Made by a program: the position numbers and the translations under genes. A DNA stretch of 49,337 bases from Candidatus Doudnabacteria bacterium. Its GTDB lineage: Bacteria > Patescibacteriota > Doudnabacteria > UBA920. Where the stretch lies: assembly GCA_903908535.1 (NCBI GenBank), contig CAIVSE010000042.1, positions 1-49,337 of the forward strand, given 5' to 3'. This document shows positions 39,621 through 49,337 of this stretch, piece by piece. How positions within the stretch are numbered: position 1 is the stretch's first letter; the number at the start of each line of letters is the position of its first letter. Below the pieces are notes generated by a model that saw only the letters and a list, made by a program, of their open reading frames with translations, was not told the origin of the DNA and made no database searches.

Positions 39621-39839
39621 ATGTCTAACCTCATTGGCGGCTCCGTATCCGATCCCAATCTTCCCTTAAGGCTGATGCTGATAGTTTTTGCCGGCATTTT
39701 GGCCGTTGGCGCAGTCAGTTACTGGCGGGCGGAACTATACGTGGCCGCGGACTACCAGCCTTTGCCCGTCACCCACCAGGAAATAAAAATTATTGATCAA
39801 AACAATTTAATTAAGAAGGAGCTTTATGGAACCAATTAA
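39621..39839 (+). CDS. Small membrane protein, hypothetical
   Basis: 72 aa with one TM segment LRLMLIVFAGILAVGAVSYW; overlaps the gap start by 14 nt. Confidence 0.4.
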   Translation: MSNLIGGSVSDPNLPLRLMLIVFAGILAVGAVSYWRAELYVAADYQPLPVTHQEIKIIDQNNLIKKELYGTN

Positions 39840-40848
39840 AGTCGGTATTAACGGCTTCGGCCGCATTGGCCGCCAGGCCTTTAAGCTGGCCATTGACAAA
39901 CAGGAAATAGAAGTTGTAGCCATTAACGATTTAACCAGCCCCGCGGTTTTGGCGCATCTCTTAAAGTATGACAGCAACTACGGACGGTTTCCCCATACCA
40001 TTACCGCGGATGAAACCCACGTCATCGTGGACGGCAGGCAATATTTGGTTATCGCGGAAAAAGATCCCGCCAGTCTGCCCTGGGGCAAGCTGGGCGTGGA
40101 CGTGGTTTTGGAATGCACCGGCCGGTTTACGGACAGCGAAAAAGCCGGTGCGCACCTTAAGGCTGGCGCCAAACATGTCATAATTTCCGCCCCGGCCAAA
40201 GACGAGGGTCTTACTCCCACCATAGTTTTGGGCGTCAACGAAAAAGCTTACACCGGCCAGCCCATAATCAGTAACGCTTCCTGCACCACCAATTGCATCA
40301 CGCCGGTTATGTCCGTGCTGCAGGCCAAGTTCGGCATAACAAAAGCTTTTATGACCACCATCCACAGCTACACGGCGGAGCAGAATTTGGTGGACGGGCC
40401 GCCGCCCGGAGGCAAGGTTGATGACATGCGTCGCGCGCGCTCCGCGGCCGAAAATATTATCCCGACTACGACCGGCGCGGCCATTTCCGCCACCCAGGCC
40501 ATTCCGGAACTAAAAGGCCGCTTTGGCGGCCTGGCTTTCCGCGTGCCCACTCCTGTTGGTTCGCTGTCCGACTTCACGCTACTGCTAAAAACTAAAACCA
40601 CCAAAGACGAAATCAATCGCGCCTTTACGGAAGCCAGCCAGTCCTCTGTATATAAAGGAATTTTGGAAGTCACCAACGAGCAAATTGTCTCTTCCGATAT
40701 TGTCGGTAATCCCGCTTCCTGTATTGTGGATTTGTCCCTGACCCAGGTTATGGACGGCGACTTCGTAAAGGTTGTAGCCTGGTATGACAACGAGTTCGGC
40801 TACAGTAACAGGCTGGTGGAAGAAATAATTTTAGTGGGAAGCAAATAG
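39826..40848 (+). CDS. gap: Glyceraldehyde-3-phosphate dehydrogenase
   Basis: GINGFGRIGR, SNASCTTNC; AGGAG SD upstream. Confidence 0.95.
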   Translation: MEPIKVGINGFGRIGRQAFKLAIDKQEIEVVAINDLTSPAVLAHLLKYDSNYGRFPHTITADETHVIVDGRQYLVIAEKDPASLPWGKLGVDVVLECTGRFTDSEKAGAHLKAGAKHVIISAPAKDEGLTPTIVLGVNEKAYTGQPIISNASCTTNCITPVMSVLQAKFGITKAFMTTIHSYTAEQNLVDGPPPGGKVDDMRRARSAAENIIPTTTGAAISATQAIPELKGRFGGLAFRVPTPVGSLSDFTLLLKTKTTKDEINRAFTEASQSSVYKGILEVTNEQIVSSDIVGNPASCIVDLSLTQVMDGDFVKVVAWYDNEFGYSNRLVEEIILVGSK

Positions 40849-40850
40849 TA

Positions 40851-42074
40851 ATGGCCATTAAGTACATCAACTCTAAGACTTTTAAAAATAAAACCGTACT
40901 TGTACGGGTTGATGTTAATGTTCCCATAAAAAATAACAAGGTTGAGGATGACTTTCGCATAAACTCTGTTATTCTAACCTTGAGAATGCTAAGGGATGGC
41001 GGTAACCGGATAATATTATGCGGTCATTTAGGCCGCCCGGAAGGAGAATGGGAAGAAAGTTTAAGTTTAAGACCGGTGGCCAGGGAACTGGCTTACCAAA
41101 TGGGTTATAAATTTTTAGAAACAGCCCACGAGCTGGGCAGCTATCCCGACCGGCGCCTGATTTTTTTTACCGGCAATTTAATGGAAGATACCCACCTGGC
41201 GCAGTTAAAGCTGGTGCCGGAAAGTGATTTGCTATTTTTGGAAAATTTACGATTTTACCCGCAGGAAGAGGAAAATGCCATGTCTTTAGCCAGGAGGCTG
41301 GCTAGCTGCGCCGACGCTTACGTGGACGAGGCCTTTTCCGTGACTCATCATAGGGCGGTTTCTATTTCCGCCATCACCAAAGTTTTGCCCGCCTATGGCG
41401 GCCCTTTGCTGGAACAGGAGATTAAGTCGTTAAGTTTTGTGCTGGAGCGGCGGCAAAAGCCGTTTGTGTTGATGATGGGCGGCATTAAGATTTCCGACAA
41501 GATAGAAGTTTTGGAACATTTGGGCAAACATGCCGACAGCATTTTGCTGGGAGGCGGGTTGGCCAGTTTGGTGTTTGCTTCGCGCGGTTACGAAATTGGT
41601 ATTTCCAAAACAGAAGCCGGCGCTTTAAATAAAGCCTTCCAGGTGGACAAAAATTTTAAAAATAAACTGGTTTTGCCCGTAGATGTTGTCGTGGCCAATA
41701 AGGACATGGACAAAGACAGCATCCGCGTTTGCCCGCCCCACGAAGTCCGAAAAAATGAACAGATTTTGGATGCCGGCCCCAAAACTATTTTGCAGTTCGC
41801 GGGAATTTTAAAGACGGCCAAGACCATTGTCTGGAACGGCCCGCTGGGGCTGTTTGAACGCAAACCGTTTTATACGGCTACCATAGCTTTGGCGCGGGTT
41901 ATTGGCGGCGTGGGTAAGCGCACGGCCTATGCCTTAGTTGGCGGCGGCGAAACCGTGGACGCGGTGCGCCAGGCCGGACAGCTGGAAAATATTGACCACG
42001 TCTCCACCGGCGGGGGAGCCATGCTGGAGTTCTTGGCCGGCAAAAAACTGCCGGGCATAGAAGCCTTGAAATAA
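40851..42074 (+). CDS. pgk: Phosphoglycerate kinase
   Basis: VLVRVDVNVP...GGGETV...STGGGAMLEFL. Confidence 0.93.
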   Translation: MAIKYINSKTFKNKTVLVRVDVNVPIKNNKVEDDFRINSVILTLRMLRDGGNRIILCGHLGRPEGEWEESLSLRPVARELAYQMGYKFLETAHELGSYPDRRLIFFTGNLMEDTHLAQLKLVPESDLLFLENLRFYPQEEENAMSLARRLASCADAYVDEAFSVTHHRAVSISAITKVLPAYGGPLLEQEIKSLSFVLERRQKPFVLMMGGIKISDKIEVLEHLGKHADSILLGGGLASLVFASRGYEIGISKTEAGALNKAFQVDKNFKNKLVLPVDVVVANKDMDKDSIRVCPPHEVRKNEQILDAGPKTILQFAGILKTAKTIVWNGPLGLFERKPFYTATIALARVIGGVGKRTAYALVGGGETVDAVRQAGQLENIDHVSTGGGAMLEFLAGKKLPGIEALK

Positions 42075-42085
42075 TTATCCACACG

Positions 42086-42113
42086 TTGACAAACGCGTGG
42101 ATTTCTTTATAAT
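42086..42113 (+). promoter_or_regulatory. Sigma70-like promoter
   Basis: TTGACA, 16-nt spacer, TATAAT. Confidence 0.55.
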
Positions 42114-42163
42114 TCAAATTACGTTCCTGTTTTGGGGCGACACCATGTTAGGAGGAATATGAA

Positions 42164-42496
42164 ATGGAAAAAGAAGATGCCGGGCCTGCCGGTGAAGACT
42201 CTTTGGGAGAATCGGTAAAAAACCTGACCGGAATGGTAAAACGCATGTACGCGGTCCATCGCGCCAGGTGGGATTGCAAAAACGAGCCTATGGAAATTTC
42301 CCTGCGGCGCGTTGGCGCGGTCTTTGCCAAGAATTTTGGCCTGACGGTAAGGATGCTGCAGGCGTTGTTACCTGATTATCGCGTAACTTACGACGTGCCT
42401 GACGAGTGGTTTAACATCCAGGTCATCCTTCGGGAAGACATAAAACCGCACGCCAAGCAGCAGGCGGTTACCGAAGTTTCAGCCTCTCCGGTTTGA
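42164..42496 (+). CDS. Hypothetical protein
   Basis: GGAGG SD 5 nt upstream; 110 aa; own promoter and terminator. Confidence 0.5.
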   Translation: MEKEDAGPAGEDSLGESVKNLTGMVKRMYAVHRARWDCKNEPMEISLRRVGAVFAKNFGLTVRMLQALLPDYRVTYDVPDEWFNIQVILREDIKPHAKQQAVTEVSASPV

Positions 42497-42518
42497 GCCT
42501 GTAGTTTTCCACACACAG

Positions 42519-42551
42519 CGGCCTCGGCGTTTTGCCCGGCCGTTTTTTTTT
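42519..42551 (+). terminator. Rho-independent terminator
   Basis: CGGCC..GGC / GCC..GGCCG stem followed by T9. Confidence 0.7.
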
Positions 42552-42578
42552 GATACTAACGTAGAATACTGGTATACT

Positions 42579-44192
42579 ATGAGTATATTTATGGAGCATA
42601 AAATTTACAAAAAAGTCGCCCTGATAGTCTTGGACGGTTTTGGCGTGGCCCATGAAAGCAACGGTAACGCCATTAGCCTGGCTAAGACGCCGACCCTGGA
42701 CTATTTAGTCGCCAATTTTCCTTCCCTGACTTTACAGGCCAGCGGCCCGTTAGTCGGCCTGCCCTGGGGCGAAATGGGCAATTCCGAAGTCGGGCACCTC
42801 AACATTGGCGCCGGCCGCATTGTCGGGCAGGATTTGCCGCGCATTACGCTTTCTATCCAAAACGGGGATTTTTTTAAGAATAAAGCTTTTTTGGACGCCA
42901 TTTCACATGTTAAGCAAGGCCATTCCAAATTGCATTTAATTGGCATGGTCAGTCCGGGCGGCGTGCACAGTTTGGACGAACATTTATACGCTTTACTCGG
43001 CCTGGCCAAAGAGTCCGGCCTGGAGCAGGCCTATATTCATATGTTTACTGATGGCCGCGATACCGAACCGCGCGTGGCTTTGGAGACCCTGCGGCAGCTG
43101 CGGGAGCGCGTGGGGCGCATTGGCATAGGCCTTGTGGCCAGCGTGGCCGGCCGTTTTTACGCCATGGACCGCGGCGGCCACTGGGGCCAAACCGAACTGG
43201 AATATCAGGCTTTGGTTAACGGTAAAGGTGAGACCGCGCCTTCAGCGGAACAGGCTGTGAGCGGCAATTACAGCCGCCAAATTTTTGATGAAATGATCAA
43301 GCCTACGGTTATTACCAAGCCGGATGGTCAGCCAATGGCCACCGTGGGCGAAAATGACGCCATAATATTTTTTAATTTCCGTTCCGACCGCGCCCTTCAG
43401 CTGACGCGGATGTTTGTCCAGCCGGAAGTTCTGCCGCAGGAATTTCGCCACCACGCCATCAATAATTTATATTTTGCCGCCATGACCGAATACGCCCCGG
43501 ATCTGGCGGTGGCCGTGGCTTTTCCATCCGTCAGTTTGAAAGATTCCCTGGGCGAGGTTTTGGCCAATAACGGTTTAACCCAGTTCCACACCGCGGAAAG
43601 CGAAAAATATGCCCATGTCACGGTATTCTTTAGCGGCGGCCGCAGTGAAAAGTTTAAAGGCGAAGAACGGCTGATTGTAGACAGCCCGAGTAATTCCCAT
43701 AATTATTCGGACCAGCCGGAAATGTCGGCCGGGTTGCTGACGGATGAGTTGGTAAAAAGGATAGCCGCCGGCAGCTTTAATTTTTATCTTGCCAATTACG
43801 CCAACTGCGATATGGTCGGCCACACCGGGGTGCTGGCCGCCGGAATTAAGGCTGTGGAATTTTTGGATGCCTGCCTTAAAAAGCTTTTGGACGCCTGCCT
43901 GGCCGCGGATACGGCGCTGCTGATTACGGCTGACCATGGCAATATAGAGCAGATGATTAACCAGAAAACCGGAGACATAGACAAAGACCATACTACCAAC
44001 CCGGTGCCGCTGCTGATTGCGGCCAGTGAATTTAAGTTTGTCCAGCCCAAAGACGCCCGTTTTATTTCTTTGGCCGCGCGCACGCCGGTGGGCTGTTTAA
44101 GCGATATCGCGCCCACTATTTTGGACCTGCTCGGCCTGCCGGAATCCCCGGAGATGACAGGCGTGAATTTACTTGAAAATGACTATGCCTAA
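42579..44192 (+). CDS. gpmI: 2,3-bisphosphoglycerate-independent phosphoglycerate mutase (alternative start at 42591)
   Basis: VALIVLDGFG...SGPLVGLP.GEMGNSEVGH...TADHGN. Confidence 0.92.
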   Translation: MSIFMEHKIYKKVALIVLDGFGVAHESNGNAISLAKTPTLDYLVANFPSLTLQASGPLVGLPWGEMGNSEVGHLNIGAGRIVGQDLPRITLSIQNGDFFKNKAFLDAISHVKQGHSKLHLIGMVSPGGVHSLDEHLYALLGLAKESGLEQAYIHMFTDGRDTEPRVALETLRQLRERVGRIGIGLVASVAGRFYAMDRGGHWGQTELEYQALVNGKGETAPSAEQAVSGNYSRQIFDEMIKPTVITKPDGQPMATVGENDAIIFFNFRSDRALQLTRMFVQPEVLPQEFRHHAINNLYFAAMTEYAPDLAVAVAFPSVSLKDSLGEVLANNGLTQFHTAESEKYAHVTVFFSGGRSEKFKGEERLIVDSPSNSHNYSDQPEMSAGLLTDELVKRIAAGSFNFYLANYANCDMVGHTGVLAAGIKAVEFLDACLKKLLDACLAADTALLITADHGNIEQMINQKTGDIDKDHTTNPVPLLIAASEFKFVQPKDARFISLAARTPVGCLSDIAPTILDLLGLPESPEMTGVNLLENDYA

Positions 44193-45867
44193 AAACTGGA
44201 CCGTAAAGCCATGTCCTTATGCCGACCTTGCCGCTACCTTGCTCTACCAGCGCGGCCTGACGGATAAAGAGGACATCCAAAAATTCCTTGACCCCAAGTA
44301 CGAGGATTTAAACAATCCTTTTTTATTTATGGACATGCAGAAAGCCGTGGGCCGTATTTTGGCTGCCATAAAAAATGGCGAGGGGATTTGTATTTACGGG
44401 GACTACGACGCCGACGCGGTTACCGCCAATGCCGTGGTTCAGCTGGCCCTACGCCATTTGGGCGTGGAAGTTAAATCTTACATTCCCGACCGTTTTACCG
44501 AAGGTTATGGCCTGAACCTGGAGGCTTTGCAAAAAATAAAAGATGGCGGTTCAAAAATTGTCATCACCGTGGATTGCGGCACCAATTCCGTGGATGTGGC
44601 CGAATTTTGTGCGCAAAACGGCATGGATTTGATTATTACCGACCACCACGAAATTATTGGGCCTGCGCCAAAGGCTTACGCTTTAATTAATCCGAAGAAT
44701 CCGGCGGATAAGTATCCTTACCGCGAAATTACCGGCGTGGGCGTGGCTTTTAAATTGGTGCAGGCTTTGTTTGAAAATTGTAAATTGAAAATTGAAAATT
44801 TCGCCTGGATTGAAGGGTGGGAGAAATGGCTGCTGGATTTGGTGGCCATTGGCACGGTGGCCGACTGCCACTCTTTGATGGGTGAAAACCGGATTTTGGT
44901 TAAGTATGGCTTAAAGGTTTTAGCCAAAACCAAGTGGGCCGGCTTGCGGGCCTTAATTGCAACCGCCGGTTTGGATTTCAGCCAAAAATTACCGGATACC
45001 TACACTTTGGGTTTTGTTATTGCGCCCAGGCTGAATGCCGCGGGCAGGCTGGAGCACGCGGATACGGCTTTGCATTTGCTGCTGGAACAGGACGCGGTTT
45101 TGGCGCAACAAAAAGCCGCGGTTTTGGAAAAAATCAATTCGCGGCGGCAGGAGCAAACCGCGCGCATTTTGAGCGAAGCCCGGGAGCAGGCGGAATTAAT
45201 TGCCGACAGGAAAGTTATTGTTGTGGCCGGCGAAGGCTGGAACAAAGGCATTGTTGGTTTGGTGGCCGGCAAACTGGCCGAGGAATTCCATAAGCCGGCC
45301 ATTGTTTTGGAAAAAACCGAAACAGAGTGCACGGGCTCGGCCCGCACCGTGGGCGAGTTTGACGTGGTGGAAGCTTTAAAATATGCTGCTGATTTTTTGA
45401 CCAGTTTTGGCGGCCACAAACAGGCCGCGGGCCTGACTTTAAAAACCGAAAATCTTGAAAAGTTTTACCAAAAAGTTTTGGACTACGCGGAAGTTAATTT
45501 AAAGGAAGATGATTTGCAAAAACAACTCCTGCTGGATGCGGAATTAGCCTTTGATGATTTAAGTTTAAAGACCTGCGAGCTGTTAAACCAAATGGAGCCG
45601 TTTGGCGTGGATAATGCCAAACCCAAATTTTTGATCAGGAATCTCCAGGTGGTTTCCAGCCGGGGCGTGGGCAAAGACGGCAATCATTTGCAATTAAAAC
45701 TCAAAGCCGGAAATACGGAAGTCGACGGCATTTTATTTAACTGCGGGGATTTTGCCAAAACATTGCAAATGGGCGATACTATAGACGTGGCCGCGGAATT
45801 GATGGAAGATTCGTGGAACGGCAAAAAGAAGGTTAAGCTAAGAATAATAGATTTAAAAAAATTATGA
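44185..45867 (+). CDS. recJ: Single-stranded-DNA-specific exonuclease RecJ (alternative start at 44173)
   Basis: DYDADAVT, ITDHHE (DHH motif), FGGHKQAAG (DHHA1). Confidence 0.88.
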   Translation: MPKNWTVKPCPYADLAATLLYQRGLTDKEDIQKFLDPKYEDLNNPFLFMDMQKAVGRILAAIKNGEGICIYGDYDADAVTANAVVQLALRHLGVEVKSYIPDRFTEGYGLNLEALQKIKDGGSKIVITVDCGTNSVDVAEFCAQNGMDLIITDHHEIIGPAPKAYALINPKNPADKYPYREITGVGVAFKLVQALFENCKLKIENFAWIEGWEKWLLDLVAIGTVADCHSLMGENRILVKYGLKVLAKTKWAGLRALIATAGLDFSQKLPDTYTLGFVIAPRLNAAGRLEHADTALHLLLEQDAVLAQQKAAVLEKINSRRQEQTARILSEAREQAELIADRKVIVVAGEGWNKGIVGLVAGKLAEEFHKPAIVLEKTETECTGSARTVGEFDVVEALKYAADFLTSFGGHKQAAGLTLKTENLEKFYQKVLDYAEVNLKEDDLQKQLLLDAELAFDDLSLKTCELLNQMEPFGVDNAKPKFLIRNLQVVSSRGVGKDGNHLQLKLKAGNTEVDGILFNCGDFAKTLQMGDTIDVAAELMEDSWNGKKKVKLRIIDLKKL

Positions 45868-46265
45868 AGCTGACTATAAATACCGACGGCGGCGCCAGGG
45901 GCAATCCCGGCCCGGCCGGCATAGGCGTGGTCATCCGCGGCGAAAATAATAAAATTCTCGCGGGCCATGAGCAATATATTGGCGAGGCCACCAATAACGT
46001 GGCCGAGTACAAGGCATTGATTTTAGCATTGCATGAAGCTGAAAAAATCGGAGCGACTGATTTACTTATAAATATGGATTCAGAACTGGTGGTCAAACAA
46101 ATGAAGGGCCAGTATAAAATCAAGGAGCCCGGCCTGCAATTGTTGGCCGCGGAAGCCTTTAAACTCATCAAAAATTTTCATTCCGTGAATTTTAACCACG
46201 TCCGCCGCGAATTCAACAAAGAAGCGGATAAACTGGTTAACGAGGCTATTGACAAAGGCCAATAA
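45864..46265 (+). CDS. rnhA: RNase HI-family protein (RVT_3-type RNase H)
   Basis: INTDGGARGNPGPAGIG...NNVAEYKALI...DSELVV...NKEADKL. Confidence 0.85.
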   Translation: MKLTINTDGGARGNPGPAGIGVVIRGENNKILAGHEQYIGEATNNVAEYKALILALHEAEKIGATDLLINMDSELVVKQMKGQYKIKEPGLQLLAAEAFKLIKNFHSVNFNHVRREFNKEADKLVNEAIDKGQ

Positions 46266-46327
46266 ATGCTGTATAATATATACACAGTGGAAACCCGCTG
46301 AATTTTACAATTTGAAGGAGAAAGACG

Positions 46328-46969
46328 ATGTCTACCAAGAACACGTCTGTAGTCCCCGGAGTAGCAGTTGGAACGACGCTCGCGACTGGCGAGCAGATTG
46401 AGCACATCATGGACATGTGGCGCCGTCGCCTGAAGGGTCGCGATGTGACTCTCGCAGAGGCCAACCACATCATCCAAAACGGTGGTCAATATCTGCCGGT
46501 TATGGACAAGGCCGCCGACGTCCTCGTCGATCAGGTCCGTTCCGACATGCAGAGCACCATTGTCCGCATGGTCCGTAACGTCCGCCGCAACCGAACCGCA
46601 GTTCAGGCCATCAACGACACCGGCCGCGTGCAATATGTGGATTCCTCGGTGGTCGCCACCATGCCAACGGGCGATGGGCCGGAAGATGTGGAGTTGACTT
46701 ACTTCCGCGCAAGCCGCTACCTTTCTGACGACGAGTTGGAATTGGAGTTCGGTAGCCGGGAACTGGTTCCCGACCCGCAGGCACAAGCTGCCGACAACGA
46801 AGCCGACTCCGCGTTTGCCGATGAGCACCCCAATGGGACTCATTGGAAGAACAAAAAGGGTCAGTGGTGCTTCGCCTCGTTCGACCAGGACGTCGTCGAG
46901 CGGCTCGTGCACGTTTGCCGCTTCGGCAACAGGTGGCATGACATTTGGTGGTTACCGTTCGGTTTTTAG
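46328..46969 (+). CDS. DGR target (variable) protein; C-terminus now truncated and altered by IS insertion
   Basis: GAAGGAG SD 7 nt upstream of the ATG. The last 28 codons before the IS junction match TR except at TR adenines. The ORF reads into the IS inverted repeat (..WWLPFGF*). Confidence 0.85.
   Translation: MSTKNTSVVPGVAVGTTLATGEQIEHIMDMWRRRLKGRDVTLAEANHIIQNGGQYLPVMDKAADVLVDQVRSDMQSTIVRMVRNVRRNRTAVQAINDTGRVQYVDSSVVATMPTGDGPEDVELTYFRASRYLSDDELELEFGSRELVPDPQAQAADNEADSAFADEHPNGTHWKNKKGQWCFASFDQDVVERLVHVCRFGNRWHDIWWLPFGF
46869..46953 (+). other. DGR variable region (VR), diversified part
   Basis: The 85-nt gapless alignment to 48534-48618 has 16 mismatches, all at TR adenines. Confidence 0.9.
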
Positions 46970-48170
46970 TGGATATTTTCGTCAGCTTTTTTGTAAGATG
47001 CAACCTTTTTAATACCAAGCTTAGTTAGTATGATAGGCCAGAGGGCCTGTTTTTTTATGGTAAATTCTAGGGAACAGTGTTTGTTTAAATGTTTAAATTT
47101 AGTGTCGCAATCGGTAAATGTTTTAGTTCGTCTTCGAATCATCCATGCGTTTAGCCACCTTCTTGCTGACTTTAAACTTTGGAAACCTTTAATGGTTTTA
47201 AGTCTTCCGTTTAAATGGGAGTTGTAAAGTTCGATTAAGTTAGTGTTGTTGGGACAGTTTTCAAAGTGGAAGTAAGCGAACAGGTCATTGCGTCGTTTTT
47301 CAATGTCGTCCAGGATATTCCAGAGCGTTAGATTTTTGCCAGCGTGGTTATTCCTGACGTGTTTAATTCCTTTAGTAACCTCATCGTCATTGGTGGCTTT
47401 AAACACATGCAGCTTTAATGAATTAAAGAAATGCTGATAAGTAGTTTCTGTTCGGACTCTTAAAATCTTCCTAATATTATCCAAATAGTGGTTGTGGCAT
47501 AACTGTAATCTTGCGTATGGAAAGACCTTGTTTAATGCCTGTTTTATGCCGTCACGGTCGTCGACAACCACAATACGCAGTTTGTACCCCAGGTCTTTAA
47601 TAGTCTGGAAGTAAAGAGAAAAATTTATCTCGTCCTCAGCTAGGACCACTTGGCCATGAGGCAGGTCATGGGACATGTAATCTATGCCAAATAGGAAGGG
47701 TATCTTCCGCTCAAAGTCTTTAATCGCCACGTACTTGCCGTCCAGGATTAATATGCCTGACCAAAGATTCTCATCACATAAACCCTTTGTTAATTCGGTG
47801 TTGTCCGGCAACTGGGATATTTCGGCGATGACACGCGCGTAAGTCTGTGAACTGGATAATTTTTCTTCGTCTCCCAATCTTCTAAAACCTACTCCGTCAA
47901 TGTGTTCTATCCAAAGGTTAGTGGGATTGTTGCCATGGTAAACCGAAAATGAATGCTTACATTTACGACAAATATATTTGTGACTGCGTCCCTGCTTACC
48001 ATTTTTAACAGTTTTACTACTCCCGCACAACGGACAAATTCGGTGGCGTTTTTTTTGACATCATTAATTCTTTCTTAAATATTTTAATGGTTAACTGGGT
48101 TAATACTTGATTTTATCCCTTAAGTTTAGCCAAAACATCCAATTCTATCAACCAAAAACCGAACGGTATC
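46951..48170 (-). mobile_element. IS element (about 1.22 kb) inserted in the VR
   Basis: Perfect 15-bp terminal inverted repeats TACCGTTCGGTTTTT at 46953-46967 and 48154-48168. A 9-12 bp direct duplication CATTTGGTG(GTT) lies at 46942-46953 and 48171-48182. Confidence 0.85.
46966..48030 (-). CDS. DDE transposase with N-terminal CxxC..CxxC zinc finger (IS1/IS256-superfamily-like; family unresolved)
   Basis: CPLCGSSKTVKNGK...YICRKCKHSF; VVVDDRDGIKQALNKVFPYARLQLCHNHY; TNLIELYNSHLNGRLK. The track start is TTG, and two ATGs at 48064/48061 are offset by one frame across an A8 run. Confidence 0.75.
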   Translation of the reverse strand: MCGSSKTVKNGKQGRSHKYICRKCKHSFSVYHGNNPTNLWIEHIDGVGFRRLGDEEKLSSSQTYARVIAEISQLPDNTELTKGLCDENLWSGILILDGKYVAIKDFERKIPFLFGIDYMSHDLPHGQVVLAEDEINFSLYFQTIKDLGYKLRIVVVDDRDGIKQALNKVFPYARLQLCHNHYLDNIRKILRVRTETTYQHFFNSLKLHVFKATNDDEVTKGIKHVRNNHAGKNLTLWNILDDIEKRRNDLFAYFHFENCPNNTNLIELYNSHLNGRLKTIKGFQSLKSARRWLNAWMIRRRTKTFTDCDTKFKHLNKHCSLEFTIKKQALWPIILTKLGIKKVASYKKADENIH

Positions 48171-48204
48171 CATTTGGTGGTTCGCTGGCCGCCGCAAGTC
48201 CTAG
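48171..48204 (+). other. Displaced 3' end of the target gene: duplicated VR bases, GC-rich IMH-like segment and the original stop
   Basis: CATTTGGTGGTTCGCTGGCCGCCGCAAGTCCTAG matches TR 48607-48633 and restores ..DIWWFAGRRKS* when joined to 46953. Confidence 0.8.
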
Positions 48205-48228
48205 GACTCTGGGACGCTCTGTACTCTT

Positions 48229-48244
48229 GTGTCCCCTTGGACAC
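48229..48244 (+). promoter_or_regulatory. Short GC hairpin downstream of the IMH-like segment
   Basis: GTGTCC-CCTT-GGACAC (6-bp stem, 4-nt loop), 25 nt after the original stop. Confidence 0.4.
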
Positions 48245-48533
48245 TTCGAGCCTTGCCCCGATATAACAATCGGGATGAGGCTCTTTTCTTTTGCATAAAT
48301 TATGATAAAATGAATTCAGATAAATTTGAAAATATCCGTGGGTACGCTTGCGGGTTGTTTATCTCGCAGCGCTTGGTGTCAGAATGTCGCTGGTCAAGGC
48401 TCGCGGCAGAGTATTACCAAGCGTAAAGTTCTCCAAAGGGACTTGGTGCAGTTTGCTGGTCGGGTCAATTCCCGCAAATAAAATACAGCCCCAAGAGTAT
48501 TCAAAGGGCAGTGATAAAGATGGTTGATTGCAC

Positions 48534-48633
48534 AATTCGCCACGTTCAACCAGGACGACGACAAGCGGCACGTGAACGTTAACCGCAACGACAACAGGTG
48601 GAATGACAATTGGTGGTTCGCTGGCCGCCGCAA
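48534..48633 (+). other. DGR template region (TR)
   Basis: Matches VR (46869-46953 plus 48183-48197). Adenine-rich, with seven AAY codons in the VR frame. Track ORF 48524-48835 is the TR read in the VR frame, not a gene. Confidence 0.9.
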
Positions 48634-48644
48634 ATTCCTTTGGA

Positions 48645-49010
48645 TTAAACCCCTTCCCCAGACAATGGAGAGGGGGTTTGATTTGCGAGTTGTTTCTGCC
48701 AGCCGCCAATCATATTGCCAACTTTGGTTAGACTTATGGAAAGATTGGCTATTTGCTTGTTGTCTATGGCCTTTAATTCAAAAGCCATTTGCAGAAAGAA
48801 TTTTAGTAAATCCAAGTTTAAGCTGGCTTGCTTGATAGCGCCAAGTTTTTTGTCCTTGCTGGCATAGCCGGTAATCAGAATAAGTTCCGCTTGCTTGGTA
48901 AAAAGCTGGGTTATTTTTTCTCCCAAAGAGTGTTTGAGCAATTTGGGTATGTGTGGAAAATATTGGTACCACAATTGAAAGGCCGAGGAAATTTCCAAAA
49001 CTATGGGCAA
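48645..49010 (-). CDS. avd: Avd-like accessory (four-helix-bundle) protein, inverted relative to TR and RT
   Basis: About 120 aa and helical. ..YQYFPHIPKLLKHSLGEKI...LDLLKFFLQMAFEL...VGNMIGGWQKQL parallels Bordetella Avd ..YLYPIAQSIPRKHG...LAMLRFWLRFLAG...VGRILGSWI (from recall). The track start is TTG. Confidence 0.65.
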   Translation of the reverse strand: MPIVLEISSAFQLWYQYFPHIPKLLKHSLGEKITQLFTKQAELILITGYASKDKKLGAIKQASLNLDLLKFFLQMAFELKAIDNKQIANLSISLTKVGNMIGGWQKQLANQTPSPLSGEGV

Positions 49011-49033
49011 GTTCAGGGTTTCGAAATCCCGTT

Positions 49034-49044
49034 GGGGGGGGGGG
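49034..49044. repeat. G11 (C11 on the avd strand) homopolymer in the avd 5' region and avd-RT intergenic region
   Basis: Counted directly: 7 + 4 G across the 49031-49050 blocks. Confidence 0.95.
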
Positions 49045-49065
49045 TGAATTAAAAGTCATTTTTTT

Positions 49066-49337
49066 ATGAAAAGTCAATTAAATATTAGCTATGAGGAAAT
49101 TATATCGCCGGAAAATTTATTTGCCGCTTGGCAAGAGTTTTTGTCGGGCAAGAGAAAGAAAAAGGATGTGCAGGAATTTGGGTTTAGGCTGACAGACAAT
49201 ATTGTACAACTTTCCGAAGAACTTGCCAATTTTACTTATATTCACAGTCCGTACAGGGCTTTTAACATATCCGACCCCAAACCTCGTAATATTCATAAGG
49301 CCAGCGTGCGGGACAGAGTTTTACACCACGCAATTTA
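49066..49337 (+). CDS. DGR-type reverse transcriptase, N-terminal 90 codons (runs off the window)
   Basis: My translation is MKSQLNISYEEIISPENLFAAWQEFLSGKRKKKDVQEF...YRAFNISDPKPRNIHKASVRDRVLHHAI. It is colinear with Brt ..WENLLDAYRK..YREFLVYEPKPRLISALEFKDRLVQHAL. Confidence 0.85.
   Translation, partial: MKSQLNISYEEIISPENLFAAWQEFLSGKRKKKDVQEFGFRLTDNIVQLSEELANFTYIHSPYRAFNISDPKPRNIHKASVRDRVLHHAI

Follow-up and report, generated by a model that had tools for sequence, protein, structure and literature searches.

The 49,337-nucleotide stretch analysed here, called the window throughout, comprises positions 1-49,337 (forward strand) of contig CAIVSE010000042.1 in the Candidatus Doudnabacteria bacterium assembly GCA_903908535.1, and with high probability contains a genuine chromosomal diversity-generating retroelement (DGR) of a clade of the Candidate Phyla Radiation (CPR; Patescibacteria). 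Its components are a target gene ending in a variable repeat (VR), a template repeat (TR), an avd gene on the reverse strand, and a reverse transcriptase (RT) gene, in that order, and its VR has been interrupted by an insertion sequence (IS). Among natural systems that diversify proteins, DGRs are the most extreme, and those of CPR/Patescibacteria were reportedly treated by Paul et al. in 2017. The parts of a DGR that can be read in the window are an adenine-only difference between TR and VR, the C-terminal position of the VR, an end resembling the initiation of mutagenic homing (IMH) site, Avd, and the N-terminus of a bRT-like RT. The element is of a kind already catalogued in CPR; peculiar to this locus is the IS in the VR, and the points that go beyond what is known apply to the whole family: a target fold without a match, an RNA domain on the 5' side of TR, and an array of CTYNG repeats. 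The region read for the DGR analysis was 45800-49337, and the target gene was repaired in silico by deletion of 1229 bp.

The mutagenised part of the VR (46869-46953, plus strand; target codons 181-208) aligns without gaps to positions 48534-48618 of the TR with 16 mismatches in 85 nt, all of them at TR adenines, and none of the 58 non-adenine sites differs. A preliminary description of this DNA, made from the sequence alone, had given the same counts and suggested realigning the repeats together with the segment beyond the IS and tallying the mismatches by TR base; the realignment agrees with it throughout. The TR as a whole (48534-48633, plus strand) is 100 nt long with an IMH*-like 3' end, and its start coincides exactly with the end of an RNA helix, P3, described below. 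The last nine nucleotides of the mutagenised part of the VR (46942-46950) form the left-hand copy of the duplication made by the IS; the 3' end of the VR and its IMH-like block lie beyond the IS at 48171-48204 (plus strand), consisting of the right duplication copy followed by GGTTCGCTGGCCGCCGCAA, identical to TR up to 48197, and ending in the stop codon at 48202-48204. Comparison of this block with TR (repeat D2) gives 27 nt with one mismatch, at a TR adenine. Once the 1229 bp are deleted, the VR past the insertion runs from 48180 to 48197 and 15 more identical nucleotides are added to the alignment (48183-48197 against 48619-48633). Over the full 100 nt there are 29 TR adenines and 16 mismatches, 16/16 at adenines (hypergeometric P = 5e-11, or 6e-10 without the first two boundary positions, which are AA in one repeat and GC in the other).

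Nearly all of the TR adenines (28/29) are at codon positions 1 or 2 of the VR frame. The seven AAY codons, the 12 altered codons and both translations given in the preliminary description were reproduced. Because 16 adenine sites have changed, homing has taken place at least once. The VR makes up the final 32 codons of the repaired open reading frame (ORF; 215 aa), and 17 of its codons are mutable, which corresponds to about 10^14.6 protein variants; AAG (Lys) is the only codon that can be mutated to a stop. When every A of the TR is replaced by N, the resulting pattern matches only the TR and the VR in the window (0 sites expected), so there is only one VR. A GC-rich sequence, CGCTGGCCGCCGCAA, is common to both repeats, which diverge from 48198 (VR) and 48634 (TR) onwards in the manner of IMH and IMH*, and an IMH-like block of the form GCnGG....CGCAA is kept in relatives. 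The TR was previously placed 1.6 kb downstream of the VR; without the IS the distance is 436 nt, within the range of the relatives. The 103-codon ORF at 48524-48835 (plus strand), whose beginning lies within the TR region and which translates the TR in the same frame as the VR (MIAQFATFNQDDDK...), exists only because of the TR and is no gene; a similar TR-encoded pseudo-ORF was picked up by a protein search in a related locus, L054.

The other two components of the retroelement follow the TR. The Avd accessory gene (48645-49010, 121 aa) is matched by Pfam bAvd with 49.8 bits (cut-off 40) and, weakly, by 4dwl and 8ub7_B in PDB. The Avd-like gene had already been recognised between TR and RT; its location on the minus strand had been left unsaid. 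The RT gene (49066-49337, plus strand) is represented by its N-terminal 90 codons, which run to the window edge. Its residues 10-90 align with residues 10-90 of chain A of PDB entry 8ub7 (E = 1.5e-7), which also has a chain named Avd, in accordance with the earlier statement that the ORF from 49066 is colinear with the N-terminus of the Bordetella phage DGR RT. The full-length RT of the related locus L001, 72% identical to the RT of the window over the 90 aa that they have in common, carries LGNLTSQ and YADD (motif 4 of DGR RTs being [I/L]GxxxSQ), and aligns with 8ub7_A from end to end with an E-value of 2.8e-34, versus 7.5e-16 for the top-ranking RT of a group II intron.

Relatives of the target gene were surveyed with one genome per species: 99 were found, 80 loci were kept, and 77 gene copies were scored. 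In 33 of the 77 copies a TR of the same strand follows downstream at a distance of about 410-560 nt, with 84-100% of the mismatches at TR adenines (the range given for these copies together with L001 and L004 is 75-100%), and in nearly all of these 33 the TR is followed by avd on the reverse strand and then by the RT. The order of TR, reversed avd and RT holds in 28/28 survey loci where all three were found, and also in L004. The contexts of two homologues, L001 and L004, contain the same cassette, with avd on the reverse strand and an RT of 334-335 aa in both. L001 has one TR for two VRs, in which 19/19 and 15/15 of the mismatches are at adenines; in L004 the count is 17/18. The targets of L001 (7134-7757 and 8001-8642) and L007 form paralogous pairs with about 40% identity, each pair being served by one TR; in both loci the RT is encoded on the reverse strand and lies upstream of the target pair. 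The majority of the 80 loci belong to Patescibacteria groups or to unclassified bacterial metagenome-assembled genomes, the few with other taxon labels are suspected to be mis-binned, and several related loci come from the groundwater genome sets (RIFCSP, GW2011) used by surveys of CPR DGRs. Two clusters formed at 90% identity contain 13 and 8 natural variants, in which about 190 residues are invariant and the differences fall at about 12-14 positions of the VR. This hypervariation is direct evidence that the target family is diversified in nature.

These data bear on an alternative in which the two repeats would be an ordinary duplicated gene fragment that happens to be next to an unrelated group II intron or retron RT, with an adenine bias due to chance. 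The RT fragment by itself would not contradict it, its only match in NCBIfam being a weak one to a group II RT/maturase (E 0.023), but this alternative is refuted by the P value of the adenine bias and the recurrence of the same bias in dozens of independent loci, by the presence of the Avd gene, by the Avd-partnered chain of 8ub7 being the best PDB match of both the RT fragment and the full RT of relatives, and by the confinement of population hypervariation to the VR.

Several points weigh against the assignment of the locus to an interrupted DGR. Avd scores 60.6 bits with NCBIfam DivGenRetAVD, under the cut-off of 80, and the catalytic motifs and intactness of the RT lie beyond the window end, past the 90 codons that it contains. 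A hairpin with a 7-bp stem and a 4-nt loop stands just after the IMH-like block (48198-48215); a comparable hairpin is not conserved, turning up in just 4 of the 34 related loci, so that target recognition of the Bordetella type is not established at this locus. The ends of the putative transcripts are placed solely by means of consensus boxes and hairpins, and the IS may be carried by just a fraction of the population.

Directly upstream of the DGR, the five annotated genes at 39826-46265 (plus strand) are a housekeeping run encoding GAPDH, PGK, iPGM, RecJ and RNase HI. A phage origin of the locus was rejected, as 0/5 of these genes, the only part of the window outside the DGR that was annotated, are phage-like. 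The upstream gene context of the DGR is not conserved among relatives.

An insertion sequence within the variable repeat

The element that splits the VR is a 1220-bp IS of the IS256 family (46951-48170, minus strand) with termini GTTACCGTTCGG... and ...CCGAACGGTATC, flanked by a 9-bp target duplication, CATTTGGTG, at 46942-46950 and 48171-48179. Its 354-aa transposase (46966-48030, minus strand) has a zinc-binding motif at its N-terminus and a DDE domain of the Mutator/IS256 type (Pfam Transposase_mut, E 6.5e-13, 48.8 bits, cut-off 21); the top matches in NCBIfam are IS256 and the zinc-binding variant of IS256, both under their cut-offs. The terminal inverted repeats are 27 nt long at 89%. More than 870 homologues of the transposase were found, most of them on contigs of about 1.2-2 kb, and the sole named one is from Patescibacteria. 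In the orientation of the transposase the termini are GATACCGTTCGG ... CCGAACGGTAAC, as fixed by comparison with related copies, one of which also shows a 9-bp duplication; a model with other boundaries, in which the inverted repeats were longer and the duplication measured 5 bp, was rejected by the same comparison. The IS family is abundant, with a length of about 1.2 kb and conserved termini (L087-L090), and L089 contains two tandem diverged copies. That an IS truncates the target ORF had been noticed previously; the IS256 family, the exact bounds and the 9-bp duplication are additions to that observation.

The insertion falls in target codons 204-208. The interrupted ORF now closes with ...WWLPFGF in place of the nearly invariant last strand (FAGRRKS), and the mutable part of the VR is 1.2 kb distant from the IMH. 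For these two reasons the interrupted target is most likely non-functional, and homing would be blocked unless the IS is lost. An identical A-to-T substitution at a TR-adenine position is present in both copies of the duplication; therefore the insertion of the IS is later than the last homing. The retroelement itself was probably functional until recently, because the RNA that contains the TR is intact.

A different history, judged unlikely, would be that the DGR is still active in the population and that the IS allele is a minority or transient one, or could be repaired by homing across the IS. The ORF of Avd is unbroken, all conserved RNA elements around the TR are present in the window, and the first 208 codons of the target have no other lesion, so the insertion would be recent; yet the assembled consensus contains the IS with a clean 9-bp duplication, and the A-to-T change common to its two copies is consistent with no homing since the insertion.

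The target protein and the fold of its variable domain

The target gene on the 5' side of the IS (46328-46950, plus strand), when joined to 48180-48204, encodes a protein of 215 aa that ends in ...WWFAGRRKS*. It is preceded by a promoter-like site (46249-46277, plus strand) in which TTGACA and TATAAT are separated by 17 nt; all 12 of the 12 consensus positions agree, and the assignment is a consensus match only. Close homologues of the repaired protein number 38, none of them with a name or a Pfam domain, and a profile search expanded the family to 1379 clusters at 50% identity. Most members are 200-215 aa long, and some consist of the C-terminal domain alone (about 141-165 aa). Searches of Pfam and NCBIfam with the target, 36 relatives and seven longer members of the family gave no meaningful match and no fused domains.

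Neither a signal peptide nor a transmembrane segment is visible in the target, as had been stated before, and its N-terminus is without a hydrophobic stretch. On the absence of such signals, the target may be intracellular, as the preliminary description suggested, and possibly cytoplasmic.

Structures were predicted with AlphaFold2 from the family alignment. The full target (pLDDT 90, pTM 0.75) is modelled as three N-terminal helices (21-75) and an alpha/beta domain (77-215), and the domain alone is modelled with still higher scores (pLDDT 95.3, pTM 0.89). On the model, the 12 altered codons map to the strands 180-187 and 192-197 and the loop 198-207. The altered positions of strand 192-197 alternate with conserved residues (R192, V194, R198), which suggests that they occupy one exposed face in the predicted structure.

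Because VR regions are reported to be "systematically" of the C-type lectin (CLec) kind (PMC8144416), the absence of a match for this fold is notable. Foldseek was run with both models against 350,542 PDB chains and against BFVD, a set of predicted viral protein structures. Nothing was found below E 0.2 in PDB, where the highest TM-score was 0.25 and no lectin-like entry was in the top 50, nor below E 0.001 in BFVD, where the best E-value was 0.05; in PDB and BFVD together, no TM-score exceeded about 0.3 for either model. The description of the target as uncharacterised therefore holds, both for the 36 members without a Pfam or NCBIfam match and for the two confident models without a Foldseek match. 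At the sequence level, none of the CLec-type families of Pfam (FGE-sulfatase, DUF1566, Lectin_C) was detected in the 36 members even at E <= 5, and the profile of the family matched no PDB sequence even at E <= 10, and no solved variable protein.

The chances are nevertheless even that the VR domain is a very divergent, compact CLec fold, as in every DGR variable protein with a solved structure, and that the scaffold is nothing new. Residues about 121-213 have a CLec-compatible order of secondary structure (strand, helix, short strand, helix, four strands), and the invariant last strand (WFAG[VR]RK) is encoded by the IMH-like block, as is beta5 (RFxGV) in AvpA (PMC5006420). The CLec folds known from DGRs are only weakly similar to each other (PMC5006420), and Roux et al. 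expected that the uncharacterised VR domains of CPR would be new variants of CLec (PMC8144416). Set against this are the two confident models without a PDB or BFVD match below the E-values given above, the failure of the family profile to reach any PDB sequence, and the lack of a meaningful Pfam score in the 36 members.

The base composition of the target gene is unusual as well. Its G+C content is above that of the genome over its whole length by 4-27 points, and by at least 10 points in 9 of 10 loci (the comparison covers the window, 46328-46953, and L001, L004, L008, L010, L020, L022, L024, L037, L055 and L071). The target of the window has 59% G+C versus 47%, and 0.73 versus 0.55-0.62 at third codon positions. 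In L024 the target has 61% versus 34-37%. Across the loci, the adjoining Avd and RT genes are at or under the G+C content of the genome.

RNA around the template repeat and the array after the VR

Roughly 230 nt from the terminator of the target to the TR can be aligned across 36 loci, and within this alignment a structured RNA domain of about 200 nt (48334-48533, plus strand, as are all the elements of this RNA) is predicted by covariation directly on the 5' side of TR. It comprises helices P1 (48334-48355) and P2 (48373-48419), an invariant ACUUGGUG (48441-48448), and the 12-bp helix P3, in which 48446-48457 pairs with 48522-48533 around two inner hairpins and which ends directly before the first base of TR. 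Compensatory changes occur in 37 of the 44 predicted pairs. In the alignment, 94.9% of cells are paired, compared with 37-54% when the partners are slid, the covariation score is 0.70 compared with 0.13-0.19, and 0/500 shuffles reach the observed values.

P3 and TR are together enclosed by a bracketing duplex, whose 5' strand (48432-48439, repeat I13) pairs with CCTTTGGA just past the TR (48637-48644). This duplex covaries in the 36 loci, with CCAAAGG/CCTTTGG, ATGAAGA/TCTTCAT and ACAAAGA/TCTTTGT among the examples, and 88% of cells pair in register versus 44-58% when slid. Directly 3' of TR, a hairpin with a U-rich tail (48647-48690, repeat I4) overlaps the 3' end and stop codon of avd on the other strand. 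Its structure is kept and its sequence is variable across loci, and it is a candidate for an Avd-binding stem-loop, a terminator, or both. On the 5' side of the whole, a -10-like box (TGATAAAAT, 48303-48311), aligned as TAnAAT in most of the rows that reach it (27/36 rows), may be the promoter. The RNA from about 48320 to 48690 is thus predicted to be the functional RNA of the DGR. No Rfam family matches the RNA around TR. A match to RT-7 on P2 (48378-48434) was dismissed as chance, at 24.7 bits where the gathering threshold is 116.8; it is absent in eight relatives at E <= 0.1 and in 17 at gathering thresholds.

The region between the IMH-like block and this RNA is also structured, with three hairpins, the last followed by a T-run. 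An array of CTYNG repeats spaced by 7-8 nt (48198-48262, plus strand; folding z of -3.4) includes two of the hairpins, one of 7 bp (48198-48215) and one of 6 bp (48229-48244), and the third (48248-48293, plus strand), aligned in relatives, is a terminator-like hairpin with a T-run that probably ends the target transcript. In the 36 loci, CT[TC]NG sites in the 75 nt past the IMH have a mean of 4.3 versus 0.55 in random windows, with a spacing peak at 7-8 nt, and ACTTNG occurs 48 times versus 2.9 in shuffles. The repeat unit is similar to ACUUGGUG, the invariant motif of the RNA, and the array may hypothetically be a target-recognition element. About 29 'orphan' genes of the family, with no TR within 4 kb, mostly retain both the IMH-like block and the array, and this suggests, from their sequences, that they are targets served in trans. 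The papers on CPR DGRs that were read contain no description of the 5' RNA domain or of the CTYNG array, and both are additions to the preliminary description.

In the mechanism that can be proposed, an RNA of roughly 370 nt would be transcribed from about 48320 to 48690, consisting of the structured 5' domain, the 100-nt TR, the bracketing duplex and the 3' hairpin. A complex of RT and Avd would copy the TR into cDNA with misincorporation opposite adenines, and the cDNA, held in place by the GC-rich block that resembles an IMH, would be substituted for the VR of the target. As a result, up to 17 codons could be recoded in the two strands before the terminal one and in a long connecting loop of a small, apparently soluble alpha/beta protein. 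Later, the IS256-family element entered codons 204-208 of the VR. The roles of the RNA elements in this scheme, and the location and ligand of the target, are putative.

A more far-reaching proposal combines these points: that a VR domain of roughly 140 residues, soluble-looking and possibly cytoplasmic, is of a non-CLec fold and widespread in CPR (1379 clusters), and that its DGRs have an RNA domain on the 5' side of TR and use the CTYNG array in place of a cruciform as the mark of the target. Taken jointly, these claims are tentative and somewhat improbable. If they were true, a non-CLec VR domain would contradict the rule that places all hypervariation by DGRs on the CLec fold.

Comparison with known systems

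DGRs are especially common in CPR, and what they diversify there is an open question (PMC8144416). The architecture B3, which is TR-(avd)-RT with avd on the reverse strand, was described by Wu et al. 2018 together with a 'CPR set' and unknown classes of CPR VR (PMC5758913). The DGR of the window resembles these CPR DGRs (B3; DGR clade 2 of Roux et al. 2021, PMC8144416) in host group, in gene order and reversed avd, in an adenine bias of about 100%, and in a target without a transmembrane segment, signal peptide or recognisable domain, the lack of transmembrane segments and recognisable domains being the reported rule for the targets of the clade (PMC8144416). It differs from them by the IS inside the VR of the window copy, and its target family was not matched to a named VR class (UVR1-6).

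The DGR of Bordetella phage BPP-1 (mtd-VR, avd, TR, brt) is similar in its adenine mutagenesis, in an AAY-rich TR, in a C-terminal VR with a GC-rich IMH, and in the presence of Avd and a small RT of about 330 aa (a length known here from the relatives). Its RNA is likewise similar, with a duplex of TR-flanking sequences ('cPRT Stop'-like) and a stem-loop just 3' of TR. The upstream-downstream 'cPRT Stop' duplex and an Avd-binding stem-loop 3' of TR were considered by Handa et al. to be common features of DGRs, from an analysis that covered 40 nt upstream (bioRxiv 10.1101/2023.10.23.563531). Unlike that of BPP-1, the avd of the window is inverted and located between TR and RT. Only about 60 nt of RNA 3' of TR precede the hairpin and U-tract, and a large domain of about 200 nt is on the 5' side of TR, whereas the Bordetella Sp is on the 3' side. 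The post-IMH cruciform is not conserved in the family of the window, and the CTYNG array is in its place; a post-IMH hairpin or cruciform of the Bordetella and Legionella type occurs in only 34% of DGRs (PMC5758913). The element of the window is chromosomal, and its target is not a tail fibre and not recognisably a CLec of the FGE type. The covarying RNA and the post-IMH array may thus be handles on cDNA synthesis and target recognition in DGRs without a Bordetella-type spacer and cruciform.

AvpA and AvpA-like proteins of Nanoarchaeota and groundwater archaea (PMC5006420) are also small single-domain variable proteins of nano-sized, host-dependent organisms, with a fold that could not be predicted from sequence, about 12 variable residues, and a final strand that is encoded by the IMH and bears a motif of the aromatic-x-G-V type. 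There is no detectable sequence similarity between them and the target of the window, AvpA is not among the Foldseek matches, and the target differs further in having its VR at the very C-terminus and a three-helix N-terminal segment before its alpha/beta domain. Being small, soluble-looking and confidently modelled, with no structural neighbour, the target is a candidate for testing the universality of CLec and for the ligand of a CPR DGR.

The IS is like other members of IS256/Mutator in its DDE transposase, its terminal inverted repeats, its 9-bp duplication (8-9 bp in the family) and its length of about 1.2 kb. It differs from them as a zinc-binding variant under the NCBIfam cut-offs, and in its insertion site, the VR of a DGR target, where it is a natural knock-out that parts the VR from the IMH.

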